From Candidatus Yonathbacteria bacterium RIFCSPLOWO2_01_FULL_43_27 (lineage in GTDB: Bacteria > Patescibacteriota > Minisyncoccia > Phycocordibacterales > UBA1550), in contig MHUV01000007.1 of assembly GCA_001823545.1 (NCBI GenBank), positions 115 to 59,674 on the forward strand: a stretch of DNA of 59,560 nt. The letters are read 5' to 3'. The translations under genes were made by a program, and so were the position numbers. Under the pieces are notes generated by a model, which saw only the letters and a list, made by a program, of their open reading frames with translations, had not been told where the DNA came from and did no database searches. Every line of letters begins with the position of its first letter. Within the stretch, counting starts at the first letter, position 1. Below are positions 13,865 to 20,181 of the stretch, piece by piece.

Positions 13865-14887
13865 TTACAGCGAAAAACTTTTGATGTTATAGAGATCTTC
13901 TTCAGGCGCCTCTCCTACCGTATCCTTGCCATCCTCAGCAAGCTCATGAGGCTCTGCGGGGCGTGTCGCTTCCTCGACAGTCTCTCCGAGTGGGGGAAGG
14001 TTCTTTGCTTCACTCCCTGCTTCAAGTTCTGCCTGTAAGCGTTTGATGAAATTGCGCACGTCATCACTTGAAAAGAAATCGATGACGATTTTCCCTCCGA
14101 CTTCACGTTTTTCAATCTGCACGCGTGTGCCAAGGCGCTCGGTAAGTTCGTGCTCAAACTCCATAATCTCAGGATCAATCCCCCGTTCTGGCTTGCGCAC
14201 TTTGTTCACCGCGATACGACGTGCGATACGTTCTGCTTCACGCACATTGAGCTTCTTAAATATAATTTCCTTAAAAAGGGTCATTTGCTCCTCCGCGCGA
14301 TCACCGAGCATAAGGAGTGGACGAGTGTGTCCTTCGTTGATACGTCGCTCAGCAAGTGCGGTGAGCATTTCTTGAGGAAGCGCCAAAATGCGAATCGTAT
14401 TAGATACATATTCGCGACTTTTACCAACCTTGTGCGCGATCTGCGCGTGCGTAAATTTGAATTCAGACGCAAGACGGTTAAAAGCCATCGCGCGATCAAC
14501 GGCATTCAGGTCTTCACGTTGGAGATTTTCAATGATCGCAAGTTCTAGTTTTGCTTGCGCTTCTTCTTCTTTTCCTTCTTCGCCAATACGAATAAGTACT
14601 GGCACTTGGGTTAGTCCCGCAATTTTTGAAGCCCTCAAACGACGTTCGCCTGCAATAAGCTCGTATTCTACGGCAAGACCACCTTCTGGCTTTTCTACCT
14701 CACGACGCGTCACGACGAGTGGCTGAAGAATACCGTACTGTTTAACCGAATCAGCAAGATCACGAAGTTTCTCTTCATCAAATTCTTTGCGTGGCTGAAA
14801 TGGATTTGGTTTTATTTTTTCAACTTCGATCCAAAAGATCGCATTCTTATACATTTGATGGTGTTGATTCTCGTGTGGTGTGGTCAT
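13865..14887 (-). CDS. parB: ParB/Spo0J family partition protein
   Basis: PNPFQPRK.F, GILQPLVV, LIAGERRLRA, IENLQREDL, HTH KSREYVSN. Confidence 0.93.
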   Translation of the reverse strand: MTTPHENQHHQMYKNAIFWIEVEKIKPNPFQPRKEFDEEKLRDLADSVKQYGILQPLVVTRREVEKPEGGLAVEYELIAGERRLRASKIAGLTQVPVLIRIGEEGKEEEAQAKLELAIIENLQREDLNAVDRAMAFNRLASEFKFTHAQIAHKVGKSREYVSNTIRILALPQEMLTALAERRINEGHTRPLLMLGDRAEEQMTLFKEIIFKKLNVREAERIARRIAVNKVRKPERGIDPEIMEFEHELTERLGTRVQIEKREVGGKIVIDFFSSDDVRNFIKRLQAELEAGSEAKNLPPLGETVEEATRPAEPHELAEDGKDTVGEAPEEDLYNIKSFSL

Positions 14888-15003: not shown

Positions 15004-15033
15004 TTTACAAACAACGATATTCAATGTTATAAT
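15004..15033 (+). promoter_or_regulatory. sigma70-type promoter of flavinylation operon
   Basis: TTTACA-N18-TATAAT with TG extension, 9 nt upstream of ATG 15043. Confidence 0.6.
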
Positions 15034-15042
15034 ATAAGACAT

Positions 15043-15285
15043 ATGGGGCAAATAACAATATTTTTAGGGCACGGGTTGGTATGGTGGACAGGAATGCTCG
15101 GCGGGTTTTTCTTCCTTCTCCTCATTATCACCGCACTCGTAAAACAATTTAATTATAATATTTTTATGGGATGGCAGATCCCGCTCACGCCACTTCACCA
15201 TTGGTTTGGATGGCTTGCGTTTGGACTGCTCTTTATTCATTTCCTTCTCGCACTCTTTAGTTCTGTATTTATGGTCTTCTTCTAA
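15043..15285 (+). CDS. small membrane protein, putative minimal b-type cytochrome (DUF4405-like)
   Basis: Two hydrophobic helices; LHHWFGWLAFGLLFIH places His residues 13-14 apart in one helix. Confidence 0.65.
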   Translation: MGQITIFLGHGLVWWTGMLGGFFFLLLIITALVKQFNYNIFMGWQIPLTPLHHWFGWLAFGLLFIHFLLALFSSVFMVFF

Positions 15286-15313
15286 AAAACCATAATAGGA
15301 CCACGAACACAAG

Positions 15314-16036
15314 ATGAATATTATCGCAAAGATCAAACACTGGTTTACCGAAGCACCATACGTTGAAGGCACGGTCATTGAATCAGAACGTATTGGCTCA
15401 CGTATCCAAAAAGTTACCATTGGACTTCCGCTGGATGTCCGTGGCCCCTTTCCTATGGGTTCCTACATTGTCGCTTATACCTGGGGTTGTATACCTCGCG
15501 CATACTCGATTGCAAAAACCGACGGAGGTTCATTTACTCTTCTCGTAAGTTTTAGTGGTGGTGGCGCAGGCGCGCGATATTTCCGCGATATTACCGTCGG
15601 CAAAAAAGTTATTTTTTATGGACCTTTCGACGACTTCCCTTATCGTGCGGGCACTGGCCGTCCAAAAATATTCTTTGCAACCTCAACAGGAGTTGCTCCT
15701 TTTCGTATGATGGTAGACGCTGCTATCAGCGAAGGTCTTCATGCGACGATCGTACTTGGATCACCCAAAGAAGGCGATGTCGCATTCAAGGAAGAGCTTG
15801 AGGAGCTCTCGCGCACGAACCCTCTCTTTTCTTTTGTCCCCACACTCTCAAACGCTGATCCTAATTGGCAAGGCGCGCGCGGATATGTAACTGACTACAT
15901 TTACAAAAACCCAGAGATCGTACGCTCAAGCGACGTATATATTTGTGGTATTCCCCCCATGACACTCGGTGTTCTCGATGCACTCAAAAAGATCCGCATG
16001 CCACAAGACAAGATATTTGTGCAAAAATTCGGATAA
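15314..16036 (+). CDS. FNR-type FAD/NAD(P)H oxidoreductase
   Basis: RAYS (RxYS FAD motif), GPF, FATSTGVAPF, RGYV, YICGIPPM, C-terminal KFG. Confidence 0.92.
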   Translation: MNIIAKIKHWFTEAPYVEGTVIESERIGSRIQKVTIGLPLDVRGPFPMGSYIVAYTWGCIPRAYSIAKTDGGSFTLLVSFSGGGAGARYFRDITVGKKVIFYGPFDDFPYRAGTGRPKIFFATSTGVAPFRMMVDAAISEGLHATIVLGSPKEGDVAFKEELEELSRTNPLFSFVPTLSNADPNWQGARGYVTDYIYKNPEIVRSSDVYICGIPPMTLGVLDALKKIRMPQDKIFVQKFG

Positions 16037-16078
16037 AGAGTATACTTACAATATTACTGATATCTCATCAATTCAACT

Positions 16079-16561
16079 ATGAACATAAAAGAATCAACGA
16101 TCTCTCATGGAATACAAGACGTGCGTAGGTACGGTATCGCTGTTTTAATAGTACTTTTTTTACTCAACGTCATCACATTGGGTGCACTTCATTGGGTTGA
16201 ATCGAACCAGCTTCATAATGAGCTCGCAAAATATATGGAAACGATCCCATCCCCTAGTGCCACAAGCACCACACAGACAATTCGTCTTCCTGAAGATGTT
16301 CTATCATTTCAATTGAGATCTTCTGATCGCACAGGTTTTTACGAAACCTCCCTCGGCACGGGGAAGGACCGACAGGATTATCTTGCGTACGCAGACCCTA
16401 ACAAACATTATGTATTAATGAAATCCGAGAAGGCAATCCAAGAAGAAACAAAAGGGTTCGGTATTACACTCCTCGCGCTGTATGCAGGTGAAGTGATCCT
16501 TCTTCTTGGGTGGTGGTTCTTTGTTCGCGCAAAGATACGTGAGATCTTTGACATTGACTAA
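16079..16561 (+). CDS. two-TM membrane protein resembling a sensor input domain without kinase
   Basis: TM - ~85-aa loop - TM - very short tail. Confidence 0.7.
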   Translation: MNIKESTISHGIQDVRRYGIAVLIVLFLLNVITLGALHWVESNQLHNELAKYMETIPSPSATSTTQTIRLPEDVLSFQLRSSDRTGFYETSLGTGKDRQDYLAYADPNKHYVLMKSEKAIQEETKGFGITLLALYAGEVILLLGWWFFVRAKIREIFDID

Positions 16562-16583
16562 CAACGATAAATTAATAATTACT

Positions 16584-17162
16584 ATGCCAACATCCTTTTC
16601 AAAAAATATTCAAAAATTTCTTGTGCTCTCATTTACTGCCGTCGCGTTGGTAGTGATCGTCATTGGCGTCAGTCGTACCAAAAAAACTGACGTTACTACA
16701 GATGCCAACAATGCATCCCCCACCCCTACACCAATAGACACCACCGGAGCGAAAACGTTCACAGGCACCTCCTACCAAACGCCGTGGGGTAACGCCGTTG
16801 CTTCTATTTCAGTCAAAAACGGCAAAGTTGTTGCTGTTACGATGCCTCAAGTACCAAACTCACCACCAAGCATCTTTGCAGAGCCATACCTTGTCGACCA
16901 AGCACTTCGCACAGGAAGTGCTAACATCCAAGGTGTGTCTGGCGCCACCTTTACAAGCATGGCGTTTAAATCTTCTCTTGAAAATGCTCTTCTTCAGGCA
17001 CAAACACAAGGAGAAACGATTACCGGAGGTACCGGCACCACGACCTCGACAGCAAAACCCGTAGTTCCACGTAAATACCGCGACGATGATGACGAAGATG
17101 AGGATAGCGACGATGATTTCTTTGATTTTGACGACGACGAAGACGACGATTCAAGTCTCTAG
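16584..17162 (+). CDS. FMN-binding (flavinylated) domain protein, one site, acidic tail
   Basis: N-terminal TM; TFTG..YQTPWG.....I.VKNGK fold start; IQGVSGATFTS flavinylation motif; poly-D/E C-terminus. Confidence 0.88.
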   Translation: MPTSFSKNIQKFLVLSFTAVALVVIVIGVSRTKKTDVTTDANNASPTPTPIDTTGAKTFTGTSYQTPWGNAVASISVKNGKVVAVTMPQVPNSPPSIFAEPYLVDQALRTGSANIQGVSGATFTSMAFKSSLENALLQAQTQGETITGGTGTTTSTAKPVVPRKYRDDDDEDEDSDDDFFDFDDDEDDDSSL

Positions 17163-17303
17163 TGTATCTTGTACAAGGTTGTACGATACGTTTTTTAACG
17201 ATTTTTTGAGTTTGTAAGATTTTTTTGCTGACATCGTCTTAATATTGGTACGCACTGCGAGACTTTGTTTCGTGGTTGTTTTGAAAACTTTTATATTTTA
17301 TTT

Positions 17304-18395
17304 ATGTCAACATTTTCAAAAAAACTTCAAAAATTCTTCATTTATTTCTTTACCGGTGTTTCGGCAGTTGTTATTGTGCTTGGGATTCATCGTGCAAAGG
17401 AAACAAACGCGCTGGGAATAAATCCTATTCCTGACAACACGAGCGATATCCCCGGCGACACGTCTGAAACTTCAAGGCAAAATATTGTAAAAAACTCAAG
17501 CATACTCGGTACCTCGGTCGCTCTTCTCGATAAAACAGTTACCGCACAAGGCACCTCATACAAAACACCGTGGGGAAACCTCTCCACGAAGATCCAGGTA
17601 AAAAATGGCAAGATTGTTGCCGTGGAAATCCCAGAGCTTCCCGATTCTCCTCCAAGTATCTACGCCGAGCCATACCTTATTGATCAGGCACTTCGTTCTG
17701 GTAGTACCAACATTCAAGGAGTTTCTGGGGCAACCGTTACCACCAATGCTTTCAAATCATCTCTTGAAAGCGCACTTGCGACGGCGCGTAAACAAGAAGG
17801 AACTTCCTCAGTAAATTCACCAAAAGCAGTGAGTGCAAAAAATACCAGCACGTCAGCAAAAACTACCTCACAAATTACGACCCCTCCTCCAGCCTATGCA
17901 CTACCTCCTGCATACGTACCTCCGCAAGTAAAAACGCAGACAATTTCTCAACCTACACTTACACAGGCAACCCCAAAAGCAGGTGTATCAGGGAATTTTA
18001 CCGGTAATCCATTTTCAACCAAATGGGGAAATGCGGTTGCTTCAATTACCGTAACGAATGGGAAAATTACCGGCGTTACAATGCCGCAAGTTCCAAACTC
18101 TCCTCCGTCTATCGACGCAGAGCCATTTCTCATTTCACAGGCACTCGCCTCAGGAAATGCTAATATTCAAGGTGTGTCAGGCGCAACCGTGGTAAGTAAT
18201 GCATTCAGAGCATCGCTCGAAAGCGCTATTGCAAAAGCAAACGCGCAAGCAGTGACACAAGGAGCAACGACCGTAGTTACAAGCCCGACAACAACGGCAA
18301 CTTCTAATACTACAATGACATCTTCAACAAACACTCAACCAACCAAATACAAAAAAAATAAAAGAAATCATGATGACGAAGAGGACGACGACTAA
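17304..18395 (+). CDS. FMN-binding protein with two FMN_bind domains
   Basis: N-terminal TM; IQGVSGATVTT and IQGVSGATVVS motifs separated by a P/T/S-rich linker; acidic tail. Confidence 0.88.
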   Translation: MSTFSKKLQKFFIYFFTGVSAVVIVLGIHRAKETNALGINPIPDNTSDIPGDTSETSRQNIVKNSSILGTSVALLDKTVTAQGTSYKTPWGNLSTKIQVKNGKIVAVEIPELPDSPPSIYAEPYLIDQALRSGSTNIQGVSGATVTTNAFKSSLESALATARKQEGTSSVNSPKAVSAKNTSTSAKTTSQITTPPPAYALPPAYVPPQVKTQTISQPTLTQATPKAGVSGNFTGNPFSTKWGNAVASITVTNGKITGVTMPQVPNSPPSIDAEPFLISQALASGNANIQGVSGATVVSNAFRASLESAIAKANAQAVTQGATTVVTSPTTTATSNTTMTSSTNTQPTKYKKNKRNHDDEEDDD

Positions 18396-18404
18396 TTTAT
18401 ATTT

Positions 18405-19328
18405 ATGAACCAACCCGAACATCGTGTATTTCATTCAATGGGGATCCCCATTCACATAACACTGGTGGGCTGTTCGGCAACAGAGGCAGACCACGCAGCA
18501 CAAAAAGCAGAGGCCATATTCAACGAGTACGACCTCCGTTTTAGTCGTTTTAAAAATGAAAGTGAGCTCATGTCGCTTAATAACAGCAATGGTGTATGGC
18601 ACAAAGTGTCACTGCCATTATTCCAAGTACTCAAAAAATGCGTAGCACTCTCGGCCGATACCATGGGAATATTTGATGCATCCGTAGGTGGAATACTTGC
18701 ATCCTATGGATATGGATTGCCAAAAAAATTCATTCGAAAGACCCCCTTCCCTACGTACCGCGATCTTGCGTTCAACGATCGCGAACTTTTGGTGCGTCTT
18801 GCGCCTGGACAAATTCTTGAACCAGCGTGTATTGTAAAAGGAATGTCAATTGATGCTGCCGGACAAGCTCTTTCGGAAGTACGCGGTTTTATGATAAATG
18901 CAGGTGGTGATATTCTTACGCATGGTTCATTTAATAATGGCTCAGCATGGAACATTGCCATACAGGATCCGCGTGACCTGCGCGCAATTGTCACCACGAT
19001 AGGTATCAAGAATGCCGGCATTGCAACTTCGGGTATTTACCAAACAGGAGGAGAACACGATGGTGAAAAATGGCACCACCTCATCAATATGCAAACAGGA
19101 AAACCAGCTAATCGCACCATGAGCGCTACGGTGATTGCACCTACGTGCGAACAAGCAGACATTGAAGCATCGCTCGCAATCCTTCTCCCCTTCGAACAAA
19201 CTGTTGCTCGCCTTGAGCAGAGAAAATTGCCATATTTCCTTATTTACAACGATGGGCATATTGCGAAAAATGCCGCTTTTTCGGCACTTGAGGTTCCGTT
19301 TGACAAAATAGCAACGGATACAGTATAA
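18405..19328 (+). CDS. apbE: FAD:protein FMN transferase (ApbE family)
   Basis: MG..I.I, FSRF...SEL..LN, G.FD.SVG, IVKG..ID, INAGGDI, W.IAIQDP, IATSG.Y, HHLIN..TGKP. Confidence 0.93.
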   Translation: MNQPEHRVFHSMGIPIHITLVGCSATEADHAAQKAEAIFNEYDLRFSRFKNESELMSLNNSNGVWHKVSLPLFQVLKKCVALSADTMGIFDASVGGILASYGYGLPKKFIRKTPFPTYRDLAFNDRELLVRLAPGQILEPACIVKGMSIDAAGQALSEVRGFMINAGGDILTHGSFNNGSAWNIAIQDPRDLRAIVTTIGIKNAGIATSGIYQTGGEHDGEKWHHLINMQTGKPANRTMSATVIAPTCEQADIEASLAILLPFEQTVARLEQRKLPYFLIYNDGHIAKNAAFSALEVPFDKIATDTV

Positions 19329-19364: not shown

Positions 19365-19586
19365 ATGGAGGAATTTAAAATAGACCCGATCAAACAGAAG
19401 GAACTTCACGAAGAAGTTCTGCAAAAAATTGATCCTCGTATCGCAGAGATTTTACGAAAGCACCTTCATTATTCCACTCCTCAAGAAGAAGAGGTGCCAT
19501 TCAACGAGGAGCCTCCAAAAAAGACCTCCCACAAAAATGGACCAGGTGCATTTATCGAGAATTCTATACCAGAAAGCCATCGATAA
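19365..19586 (+). CDS. small hypothetical protein
   Basis: GGGAG SD, 73 aa, followed by terminator. Confidence 0.6.
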   Translation: MEEFKIDPIKQKELHEEVLQKIDPRIAEILRKHLHYSTPQEEEVPFNEEPPKKTSHKNGPGAFIENSIPESHR

Positions 19587-19620
19587 ATGTCACCAATAAG
19601 GACAGCCGCACGTAGTACAA

Positions 19621-19652
19621 AGAGCGGGGACCCCCCTCCCCGCTCTTTTTTT
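19621..19652 (+). terminator. intrinsic terminator
   Basis: AGAGCGGGGA-N6-TCCCCGCTCT followed by T-run. Confidence 0.8.
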
Positions 19653-19665
19653 ATTTATATTTTTA

Positions 19666-20181
19666 TTATTTCATTACAAAACGATATTTCTTTTTAGCCC
19701 ACACTCCTGCATAGTCAACGCCAATACGCGTAGTCTTTTTTATTTTTTGTTCAGGAACTACAACCCCCTTATCTTCAATCCATAAACCACTTATTCGTAT
19801 TGCACGCAAACCATTCTGAGCACGCGTGATATGTAAAAATTTTGTAAGTCTTCCCGGCCCAACAATACCATCAGTACCACGAATAAGTACCGCCGCGGGA
19901 TACCCACGTGCTCCCGTGACGATGTTGAGCATCTCGTACATACCGTATACCAGATACACATACCATCGTCCTGCATCACCAAACATCACCGCATTTCGCT
20001 CGGTCTTTCCTTTGTGCGCATGCGAGGCTTTATCGCCAACCCCGTCATATGCCTCAACCTCGGTTATCATCACGGCGACATCTTTGCCTTGTATGCTCCG
20101 CACCAAATACTTACCAAGAAGCTCACGCGCAACAATGAGTGTATCCCGCTCAAAAAAACTTTTTCCTAACACTTTTTTCAT
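19666..20181 (-). CDS. mpg: 3-methyladenine DNA glycosylase (Mpg/AAG family)
   Basis: ARELLGK, ITEVEAY, YVYLVYGM, AVLIRG, GPGRL, RIGV. Confidence 0.93.
   Translation of the reverse strand: MKKVLGKSFFERDTLIVARELLGKYLVRSIQGKDVAVMITEVEAYDGVGDKASHAHKGKTERNAVMFGDAGRWYVYLVYGMYEMLNIVTGARGYPAAVLIRGTDGIVGPGRLTKFLHITRAQNGLRAIRISGLWIEDKGVVVPEQKIKKTTRIGVDYAGVWAKKKYRFVMK

Follow-up and report, generated by a model that had tools for sequence, protein, structure and literature searches.

Patescibacteria are regarded as fermentative organisms that lack respiratory chains and depend on other cells. In Listeria, the surface-tethered protein PplA, whose two FMN_bind domains are flavinylated by an ApbE homolog, gives a fermentative cell an external electron sink; FmnB is a lipoprotein, and the Listeria locus also encodes Ndh2, DmkA/B and EetA/B. 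This flavin-based extracellular electron transfer of Listeria monocytogenes (PMC9973259) is one of several described systems with which we compared a six-gene operon of Candidatus Yonathbacteria bacterium RIFCSPLOWO2_01_FULL_43_27. The operon lies in a stretch of 59,560 nucleotides (nt), referred to here as the window, taken from the small genome of this groundwater bacterium (741 kb, 7 contigs, 99.6% complete); its homologs bear Patescibacteria source names, labelled Yonathbacteria or Pacebacteria. It encodes, in order, an 80-residue membrane protein with two hydrophobic helices (g1, hereafter TM80), a soluble FNR-type oxidoreductase (g2), a small membrane protein (g3), two anchored FMN_bind proteins (g4 and g5) and the flavin transferase ApbE (g6). 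We think it rather probable that these genes encode a split, minimal electron chain from NAD(P)H to the cell surface, in which TM80 would act as a dimeric two-helix cytochrome.

Among surveyed flavinylation clusters, those of the MsrQ-like type are mainly actinobacterial and contain, besides apbE and FMN_bind genes, a PF01794 domain of six helices that in most cases shares a chain with PF00175; for them and for the PepSY-like clusters, VIT1 and Fur point to a connection with iron uptake (Meheust et al., PMC8238504). As the text of that survey describes them, they resemble the operon of the window in bringing together a histidine-bearing membrane carrier, a PF00175 module, FMN_bind domains and apbE in one cluster, and in the proposed flow of electrons from NAD(P)H through membrane haems to an extracytosolic flavin (PMC8238504). 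The window differs from this description in that its TM80 has two helices and two family-invariant histidines and falls short of the Pfam cut-off for PF01794 (Ferric_reduct; E 0.011, 16.2 bits against 28), and four helices with four histidines would arise here only in a TM80 dimer or in the tandem-duplicated TM80 of another genome, G423. Its reductase is moreover a separate FAD_binding_6/NAD_binding_1 protein, an extra 160-residue subunit (g3) is present, and its ApbE is leaderless. DUF4405 and FezC have been shown to bind haem b, with FezC modelled as having haem sites formed by homodimerisation, and the DUF4405 proteins associated with flavinylation are described from Proteobacteria and Firmicutes, where they have six helices and cluster with Flavodoxin_4 and a flavin transporter (PMC11334425). 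The likeness here lies in small-unit membrane proteins whose paired-helix histidines form two haem sites, putatively so for TM80, and by analogy with what is described there the FezC homodimer is the closest precedent for TM80 (PMC11334425). In contrast to DUF4405, the TM80 of the window gave no match to that family at E up to 1, and its neighbours are FNR and FMN_bind genes.

The fused ferric reductases of the NOX/FRE type also have a cytoplasmic NAD(P)H dehydrogenase that feeds two stacked haems, with histidine pairs 13–14 residues apart, and fused NOX-like proteins of 430–520 residues are widespread in Patescibacteria, where they account for many of the PF01794-positive genomes counted below. 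Their six helices and their FAD_binding_8 domain of HPFS type, however, are on a single chain, whereas the FNR of the window has an RxYS-type FAD_binding_6 domain, and instead of Ferric_reduct, FAD_binding_8 and NAD_binding_6/1 on one chain the window has separate genes. The NQR/RNF-like clusters of the actinobacterial/candidate phyla radiation type have apbE and lead electrons in one direction from NAD(P)H to extracytosolic FMN_bind domains, as the operon of the window would, but they are described as having an NqrB/RnfD-like multi-pass domain fused to an NAD-binding domain, and no PF03116 match was found in the six proteins of the window (PMC8238504). A system of this kind occurs in the same genus: G005, which has no TM80 cluster, encodes a 512-residue NqrB/RnfD-like plus NAD_binding_1 protein (PF03116 at 24.7 bits, cut-off 27.7) together with a small anchored protein and a leaderless ApbE (L051), and G013 appears, by gene order and with its 505-residue membrane open reading frame (ORF) unscanned, to carry the same cluster (L052, contig 58) in addition to a TM80 cluster. 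The presence of both types in one genus argues for a function equivalent to that of the TM80 cluster. Compared with Listeria, g4 scored 11.6 bits against a cut-off of 325 for the PplA model NF041941, the ApbE of the window is leaderless whereas FmnB is a lipoprotein, and Ndh2, quinone synthesis and an ECF-type flavin exporter are all missing here, though no search aimed at Ndh2, DmkA/B or EetA/B was made. Surface-tethered proteins with two FMN_bind domains and an ApbE homolog in a fermentative cell of Gram-positive type are what the two systems would share (PMC9973259).

The cluster of the window thus falls outside the formal definitions of both the MsrQ-like and the DUF4405/FezC types yet would work like them, and we read TM80-FNR plus the flavinylated module, on the strength of sequence, as a split, minimal relative of these systems. 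The preliminary description of this DNA, made from its letters alone, had proposed that the architecture might be undescribed, and this has to be given up: it appears to be a variant of known cluster types rather than something wholly undescribed. That description had been accurate on gene content. All six co-oriented genes it placed on the minority strand are present on the + strand, which carries 12 non-overlapping ORFs of at least 120 residues against 44 on the − strand; the Pfam scan agrees with its naming of an FNR, two FMN_bind proteins and ApbE; and its three SGAT sites were recovered as one QGVSGAT in g4 and two in g5.

We searched 24 other genomes of the same genus for ApbE and TM80 and fetched 16 stretches for comparison. 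TM80 was present in 14/24 and ApbE likewise in 14/24, with TM80 missing from 10/24. The full order TM80-FNR-g3-FMN_bind-ApbE stood on a single contig in 11 of these genomes, and a twelfth cluster, in G017, was divided between two contig ends. G020 retained fragments of both the TM80 and ApbE genes at contig ends, and G001 had a decayed version without ApbE, in which a TM80 with a frameshift and a shortened FNR adjoin ParB. Another decayed form, P0070, has the N-terminal half of TM80 joined to an ApbE-like fragment. The only variable part among the clusters of the genus was the number of FMN_bind genes (1–2) and of sites (1–4), and the cluster is therefore conserved yet accessory within the genus. 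With the 12 same-genus genomes and one of another family, the recurrence of the same gene order indicates that the cluster is more than chance, and the co-conservation on which the preliminary description had staked its reading was borne out.

To look beyond the genus, we ran a TM80 profile against a sample of 401 Patescibacteria genomes, in which two real relatives were found. One genome of another family, G067, has the whole cluster, with identities to the window of 68% for TM80, 45.5% for FNR, 43% for ApbE and 29% for g3, and TM80 is the component under the tightest constraint. The other, G423, encodes a 151-residue tandem-duplicated TM80 whose gene overlaps that of its FNR, and in this genome (96% complete) ApbE, FMN_bind and g3 were not found. 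The occurrence of TM80 and FNR on their own suggests that they form a functional unit, and since g3 is missing along with ApbE and FMN_bind there while being present in the full clusters, it appears to go with the flavinylated module. Nine weak matches in other Patescibacteria (E 1.7e-4 to 0.01) were set aside: those in G410 and G169 are MraY, five further ones lie in ORFs of 347–397 residues and were taken as MraY by size, their sequences unread, and the remaining two, in an 89-residue frame of G381 and a 243-residue frame of G112, were left without identification and treated as irrelevant. The family is narrow, with 5 clusters among 1.84 billion representative proteins, two of these truncated or chimeric, and the look-alikes of TM80 in the Atlas were unnamed clusters only.

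The evidence for TM80 as a cytochrome begins with its histidines. The preliminary description had spoken of a histidine pair; three histidines (H52, H53 and H66) are in fact invariant in 12 orthologs of the genus, and the pair survives as H52 and H66, which lie 14 residues apart on helix 2 and do not vary anywhere in the family, the two repeats of the tandem form included, while the invariance of H53 is confined to the genus. The loop is conserved and positively charged (KQ(F/Y)NYNIF.KWQIPLTP), and lysine and arginine are restricted to it, the tandem form of G423 having five such residues per loop and none in the linker between its repeats; this distribution puts H52 and the loop on the cytoplasmic side of the membrane, with H66 lying further outward. 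In the tandem form there are four helices and four histidines, each pair 14 apart, and the same 14-residue spacing is found in the third transmembrane (TM) helix of Ferric_reduct (H98 and H112; 11 proteins) and in small DUF4405 proteins (H61 and H75). Sub-threshold Ferric_reduct matches (E 0.011–0.11) were obtained for 4/5 family members scanned, sub-threshold matches to Ni_hydr_CYTB and Cytochrom_B561 (E 0.014–0.046) were also seen in the family, and DUF4405 (PF14358; cut-off 26.7 bits) matched the tandem form at 19.8 bits (E 0.0012) and P0069 at 15.6 bits (E 0.025).

Profile–profile comparison with hhalign lent modest support. Aligned with 11 fused Patescibacteria ferric-reductase proteins, TM80 gave a probability of 25% and an E of 7.8e-4, and the histidine helices of the tandem form fell on ferric-reductase TM3 (H98, H112) and TM5 (H176, H189). 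Aligned with a set of only four small Patescibacteria proteins matched by DUF4405 (three above the cut-off and one at 24.8 against 26.7 bits), it gave a probability of 51% and an E of 1.5e-4, with H52 and H66 coinciding with two conserved histidines of these proteins. TM80 looks like a half-size relative of the MsrQ cytochrome class and, in view of the tandem fusion and the histidine spacing, is best read as a homodimeric bundle of four helices with two haems. The earlier statement that no MsrQ partner is present is therefore formally true but incomplete, and the tiny cytochrome that it proposed instead is retained in a weaker form, as what the sub-threshold similarities to haem-b families and the aligned histidines suggest.

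A hairpin of similar build was seen elsewhere in the phylum. In G230, a 66-residue two-helix DUF4405-like protein (L091:1480-1680; 24.8 bits against the cut-off of 26.7) with two histidines 14 apart adjoins a membrane-anchored cupredoxin (L091:584-1015; Copper-bind, 2.1e-13), and to judge by these matches it is another pairing of a putative mini-cytochrome with a surface redox carrier.

The partner proposed for TM80 is g2, in which both FAD_binding_6 (3.7e-5) and NAD_binding_1 (PF00175; 1.4e-16) scored above their cut-offs. Its motifs PRxYS, GxGxxP, CGxPxM and C-terminal KFG, and with them residues P61, R62, Y64, S65, G126, P129, C211, G212 and P214, were invariant in 14 sequences, and the best NCBIfam models (MmoC, BenC, AntC and NqrF-type reductase modules) all remained far below their cut-offs. 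The start of the FNR gene overlaps the end of the TM80 gene in five compared clusters (G019, G008, G013, G067 and G423). When a complex of two TM80, one FNR, two haems and flavin adenine dinucleotide (FAD) was predicted, the median ipSAE was 0.42 (runs 0.35, 0.43 and 0.42) against 0.01 for the best of 3 controls, with a partner pLDDT of at least 88 and a contact agreement between runs of at least 78%. In the calibration of such predictions the mark was reached by 58/80 solved complexes and 2/110 mismatched pairs, but at ipSAE ≤0.60 by only 7 of the 80 solved complexes plus both mismatches, and this calibration is only approximate for the TM80-FNR complex, for which custom alignments were used and small molecules included. 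The prediction is weakly suggestive of FNR docking on a TM80 dimer.

For g3, we found 65 homologs, all of 133–163 residues and none with a Pfam domain; the protein itself matched no Pfam or NCBIfam family and has no invariant histidine in the alignments. An AlphaFold2 (AF2) model (pLDDT 72) placed a four-strand sheet between two TM helices. The best Protein Data Bank (PDB) match in a fold search was a WalK model with a non-significant E of 0.089, and its Atlas look-alikes included some 2CSK_N, so that the best, though non-significant, look-alikes are N-terminal sensor modules of histidine kinases. We infer that g3 is probably an adaptor that positions the flavinylated FMN_bind domains. A PepSY/FoxB-like haem subunit was considered and rejected, given the lack of an invariant histidine and of a Pfam match and the absence of FoxB from the 50 fold matches listed.

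In the flavinylated module, FMN_bind (PF04205) matched g4 at 9e-6 and two stretches of g5 at 2.2e-15, all three domains being above the cut-off. Following an N-terminal TM anchor and a linker rich in proline, threonine and serine (P/T/S), g4 carries QGVSGATFTS followed by PRKYR and ends in an acidic tail, and g5 has the same kind of anchor, domains with QGVSGATVTT and QGVSGATVVS, P/T/S-rich linkers and an acidic C-terminal tail. Each domain contains the [ST]GA[ST] motif, and these are putative attachment sites for flavin mononucleotide (FMN). ApbE (PF02424) was matched at an E of 1.9e-49 (169 bits, cut-off 25.6), its Pfam domain beginning at residue 12. With a single ApbE and only three FMN_bind domains, all in g4 and g5, the genome is self-contained for flavinylation, and its ApbE has no other recognisable substrate there. 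The FMN_bind C-termini (17100–17162 and 18360–18395, and orthologs in L038–L050) share a basic PRKYR-like motif and a run of aspartate and glutamate, often with WDD; we can only guess that these acidic tails bind cations or minerals, or serve as a docking or sorting signal. In 9/12 clusters ApbE is in frame with the upstream FMN_bind gene, beginning 3–18 nt past its stop codon. Programmed read-through from g5 into ApbE was considered on account of this shared frame and set aside, as the stop is TAA in 9/12 and the relatives are not independent.

In the mechanism that we propose, the cytoplasmic flavoenzyme g2 would oxidise NAD(P)H and would dock on TM80 at its conserved cytoplasmic loop, which is positively charged. 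Two TM80 hairpins would form a four-helix bundle with the H52 pair as ligands of an inner haem b and the H66 pair as those of an outer haem b, paralleling helices 3 and 5 of the ferric-reductase/NOX/MsrQ domains and the FezC homodimer as modelled in its published description. From the outer haem, electrons would pass to FMN covalently attached by ApbE to the SGAT threonine of the anchored g4 and g5, whose long P/T/S linkers would let the FMN_bind domains reach outward to an acceptor, with g3 as an accessory membrane subunit of the flavinylated module. Of this scheme, the sequences establish the gene identities, the catalytic and flavinylation motifs, the invariant histidines, the co-conservation and the modularity, while haem binding, dimerisation, FNR docking, outward-facing FMN_bind domains, the direction of the electron flow and the acceptor are proposals. 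As to physiological role, our guess is a redox sink of a fermentative cell, or ferric iron reduction.

Several results weigh against a surface-directed chain with TM80 as its cytochrome, and they fall into those that concern the cytochrome and those that concern the side of the membrane on which flavinylation takes place. As to the former, no match of TM80 to any haem-protein family reaches its curated cut-off, and the TM80 of the window matches Ferric_reduct alone. A PDB sequence search with the TM80 profile returned nothing relevant (only a boron transporter, E 0.19), the AF2 model of tandem TM80 was poor (pLDDT 63.5), and a fold search with that model gave no match at E <1, with b561, STEAP1, NOX5 and Dcytb in its top 20. 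Longer or fused relatives of the FNR were not found at E up to 1e-5, which the note of the tool itself treats as weak evidence, and g2 is only 22–30% identical to the reductase domains of fused Patescibacteria proteins; given this identity and the different type of FAD domain, a simple origin of TM80 and FNR by recent fission of fused ferric reductases is not supported. In the 99.6% complete genome, ferrochelatase, HemN_C/HemW, cytochrome bd and FAD synthetase were not found, so that haem and FAD would need to be scavenged, and the genome search yielded no terminal reductase. The sub-threshold matches, the results of modelling and fold search and the missing haem genes fit a different arrangement, in which TM80 is not a cytochrome, its histidines bind another metal or stabilise the protein, and TM80 anchors an FNR that reduces a diffusible carrier, a free flavin or quinone-like lipid, which then reaches the FMN_bind proteins. 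They are joined by the cross-match of the TM80 profile to the histidine-rich helix of MraY (E ~1e-3), which means that the histidine motif is not unique to cytochromes. We nevertheless consider this arrangement improbable, because the 14-residue spacing equals that of Ferric_reduct TM3 and of the small DUF4405 proteins, the tandem fusion has exactly four such histidines, and TM80 is more conserved than the adjoining enzymes. The cofactor objection is likewise weakened by the frequency of PF01794, which we counted in 94 of a sample of 301 Patescibacteria genomes while ferrochelatase was near-absent (3/301; overlap 0); PF01794 had no match in the genome of the window (six-frame) or in 5 genomes of the same order in this sample, but haem proteins without haem synthesis appear, from these counts, to be the rule in Patescibacteria. 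A further alternative keeps the mechanism and makes its role assimilatory reduction of ferric iron rather than a catabolic redox sink. The published association of MsrQ-like and PepSY-like clusters with iron uptake through VIT1 and Fur (as given in the text of PMC8238504) speaks for it, as would binding of cations by the acidic tails of g4 and g5. However, VIT1 and a true FeoB were not found in the genome, its four FeoB_N matches being small GTPases or TypA-like ORFs of 205–605 residues, no iron transporter lies in or beside the cluster in the 13 loci examined, and the absence of the cluster from 10/24 genomes of the genus would be odd for an essential nutrient route; we regard such a role as unlikely.

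The results on the side of flavinylation concern ApbE above all. It has no signal peptide, lipobox or hydrophobic leader in the window or in any of the 12 orthologs, which had gone unnoticed in the preliminary description and clashes with a simple extracytoplasmic flavinylation model. ApbE occurs in 51/301 Patescibacteria genomes, and when we surveyed its N-terminus at 30 loci from 30 of these ApbE-positive genomes, that of the window included (L099–L126, L071 and L001), no hydrophobic N-terminus or signal peptide was found in any (30/30; longest uncharged run 7 residues). TatC was not found in the genome of the window, and the charges beside the FMN_bind anchors are nearly balanced, with 2–3 K/R per side. 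Candidate explanations are that flavinylation may precede Sec export, that ApbE may leave the cell by an unknown exit route, or that the FMN_bind domains may face the cytoplasm. The last of these would turn the whole system around: ApbE and the FMN_bind domains would be inside, on N-out/C-in anchors, with cytosolic flavinylation and carriers that shuttle electrons along the inner face of the membrane, for example between the FNR and a membrane protein or cytosolic acceptor, rather than to the surface. Cytosolic ApbEs are known, among them, in the published description, a second ApbE of Klebsiella pneumoniae (PMC12052999). In G007, moreover, an uninterrupted 725-residue ORF (L042:3920-6097) fuses three FMN_bind domains in frame to ApbE, without the acidic tail and without the first 26 residues of ApbE, which puts FMN_bind and ApbE in one compartment there. 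Against a cytoplasm-facing system stands G188, where the FMN_bind protein (L106:2285-2701:-) encoded next to a leaderless ApbE carries a classical lipoprotein signal with LLSGC at its end, so that a leaderless ApbE does not imply cytoplasmic substrates in the phylum. The anchors have N-terminal tails with 2–3 lysines, which is unfavourable for membrane crossing, and g3, a companion of the FMN_bind/ApbE module, has its segments arranged as in an extracytoplasmic sensor domain. Linkers of this length and P/T/S content, like acidic tails, are characteristic of surface proteins, and a cytoplasm-facing system leaves the transmembrane, histidine-bearing hairpin without a role. We consider it quite unlikely, and continue to favour outward-facing FMN_bind domains fed by a TM80 cytochrome; from the loci surveyed, service of exported substrates by a leaderless ApbE seems to be general in the phylum.

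The positions of the genes and of the sites that flank them are collected in Table 1. The start codons of g4 and g5 were placed by ortholog alignment, which corrects the preliminary use of the longest ORFs (16506 and 17265) to 16584 and 17304; the start that it gave for the region, 15004, likewise marks a promoter-like site and not a gene, the first gene beginning at 15043.

Table 1. Positions in the window of the operon genes and of neighbouring promoter-like and terminator-like sites.
Feature	Position	Strand	Basis and remarks
Promoter-like site	15004..15033	+	TTTACA, 18 nt, TG-TATAAT; 11/12 consensus matches; 9 nt 5′ of the g1 ATG
g1 (TM80), 80 aa, two-helix hairpin, putative haem-b half-cytochrome	15043..15285	+	Alignments; sub-threshold Ferric_reduct
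g2, soluble FNR-type NAD(P)H:flavin oxidoreductase, 240 aa, no membrane segment	15314..16036	+	FAD_binding_6 + NAD_binding_1
g3, 160 aa, TM helix / four-strand beta domain / TM helix	16079..16561	+	No known family
g4, FMN_bind protein, 192 aa, one site	16584..17162	+	Pfam; longest ORF begins 16506
g5, FMN_bind protein, 363 aa, two sites	17304..18395	+	Pfam; longest ORF begins 17265
g6, ApbE flavin transferase, 307 aa	18405..19328	+	Pfam; begins 9 nt past the g5 stop codon
Terminator-like hairpin, 12-bp stem + T tract	19619..19648	+	First strong one 3′ of the operon

In the ORF list, the six genes (15043–19328) lie between a divergent ParB gene on the − strand (13865–14887) and a block of − strand genes that resumes at 19666. 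Promoter assignments come from a consensus scan only, which is no evidence of function; on this basis the site at 15004–15033 is the probable promoter of the operon. A perfect sigma-70 consensus (TTGACA, 18 nt, TATAAT) was also found within the 3′ end of the ApbE gene, ahead of a 73-residue ORF (19365–19586) that belongs to no Pfam family and precedes the hairpin at 19619–19648. It is uncertain whether that hairpin is the operon terminator, since the 73-residue ORF with its own consensus promoter lies between; this ORF may be a small gene in its own right or belong to the operon as its seventh gene. No RNA data were found among the 20 listed sequencing runs containing the stretch.

A literature search found no paper pairing ApbE with Patescibacteria, the supplementary cluster tables of PMC8238504, which may list the cluster, lying outside the search, and on ApbE and the candidate phyla radiation the relevant match found was the study of Meheust et al. 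According to its text, genes without signal peptides were dropped there and the candidate phyla radiation was "strikingly underrepresented" (PMC8238504), and we infer that this filter contributed to the underrepresentation. What is new here is the tandem TM80 of G423, accompanied by the FNR alone, the link to DUF4405/FezC, the phylum-wide leaderless ApbE with one lipoprotein substrate, and the contrast between Ferric_reduct and ferrochelatase counts.

Two further proposals may be put forward together, speculatively, as a pair that we would not expect to hold in full: that a TM80 homodimer with two haems is the smallest transmembrane electron conduit known, and that leaderless ApbE flavinylates its substrates before Sec export throughout the phylum. 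If the former is true, TM80 represents the half-unit that was duplicated into the six-helix ferric-reductase, DUF4405 and b561-type cytochromes. If the latter is true, ApbE acts inside the cell on a short linear motif, no FAD exporter is needed, and the scarcity of the candidate phyla radiation in a survey that required signal peptides, as its text reports it (PMC8238504), is explained.

An 80-residue hairpin would be a very small model in which to study how a pair of haems can be held across a membrane, and it would bear on the origin of the larger ferric-reductase/NOX and DUF4405 folds. The leaderless ApbE of all examined Patescibacteria loci raises the question of where and when flavinylation takes place, and surveys that require signal peptides may undercount it in this phylum. 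For Patescibacteria themselves, a compact route from NAD(P)H to the surface would let cells dump reducing power, reduce iron, or trade electrons with a host.

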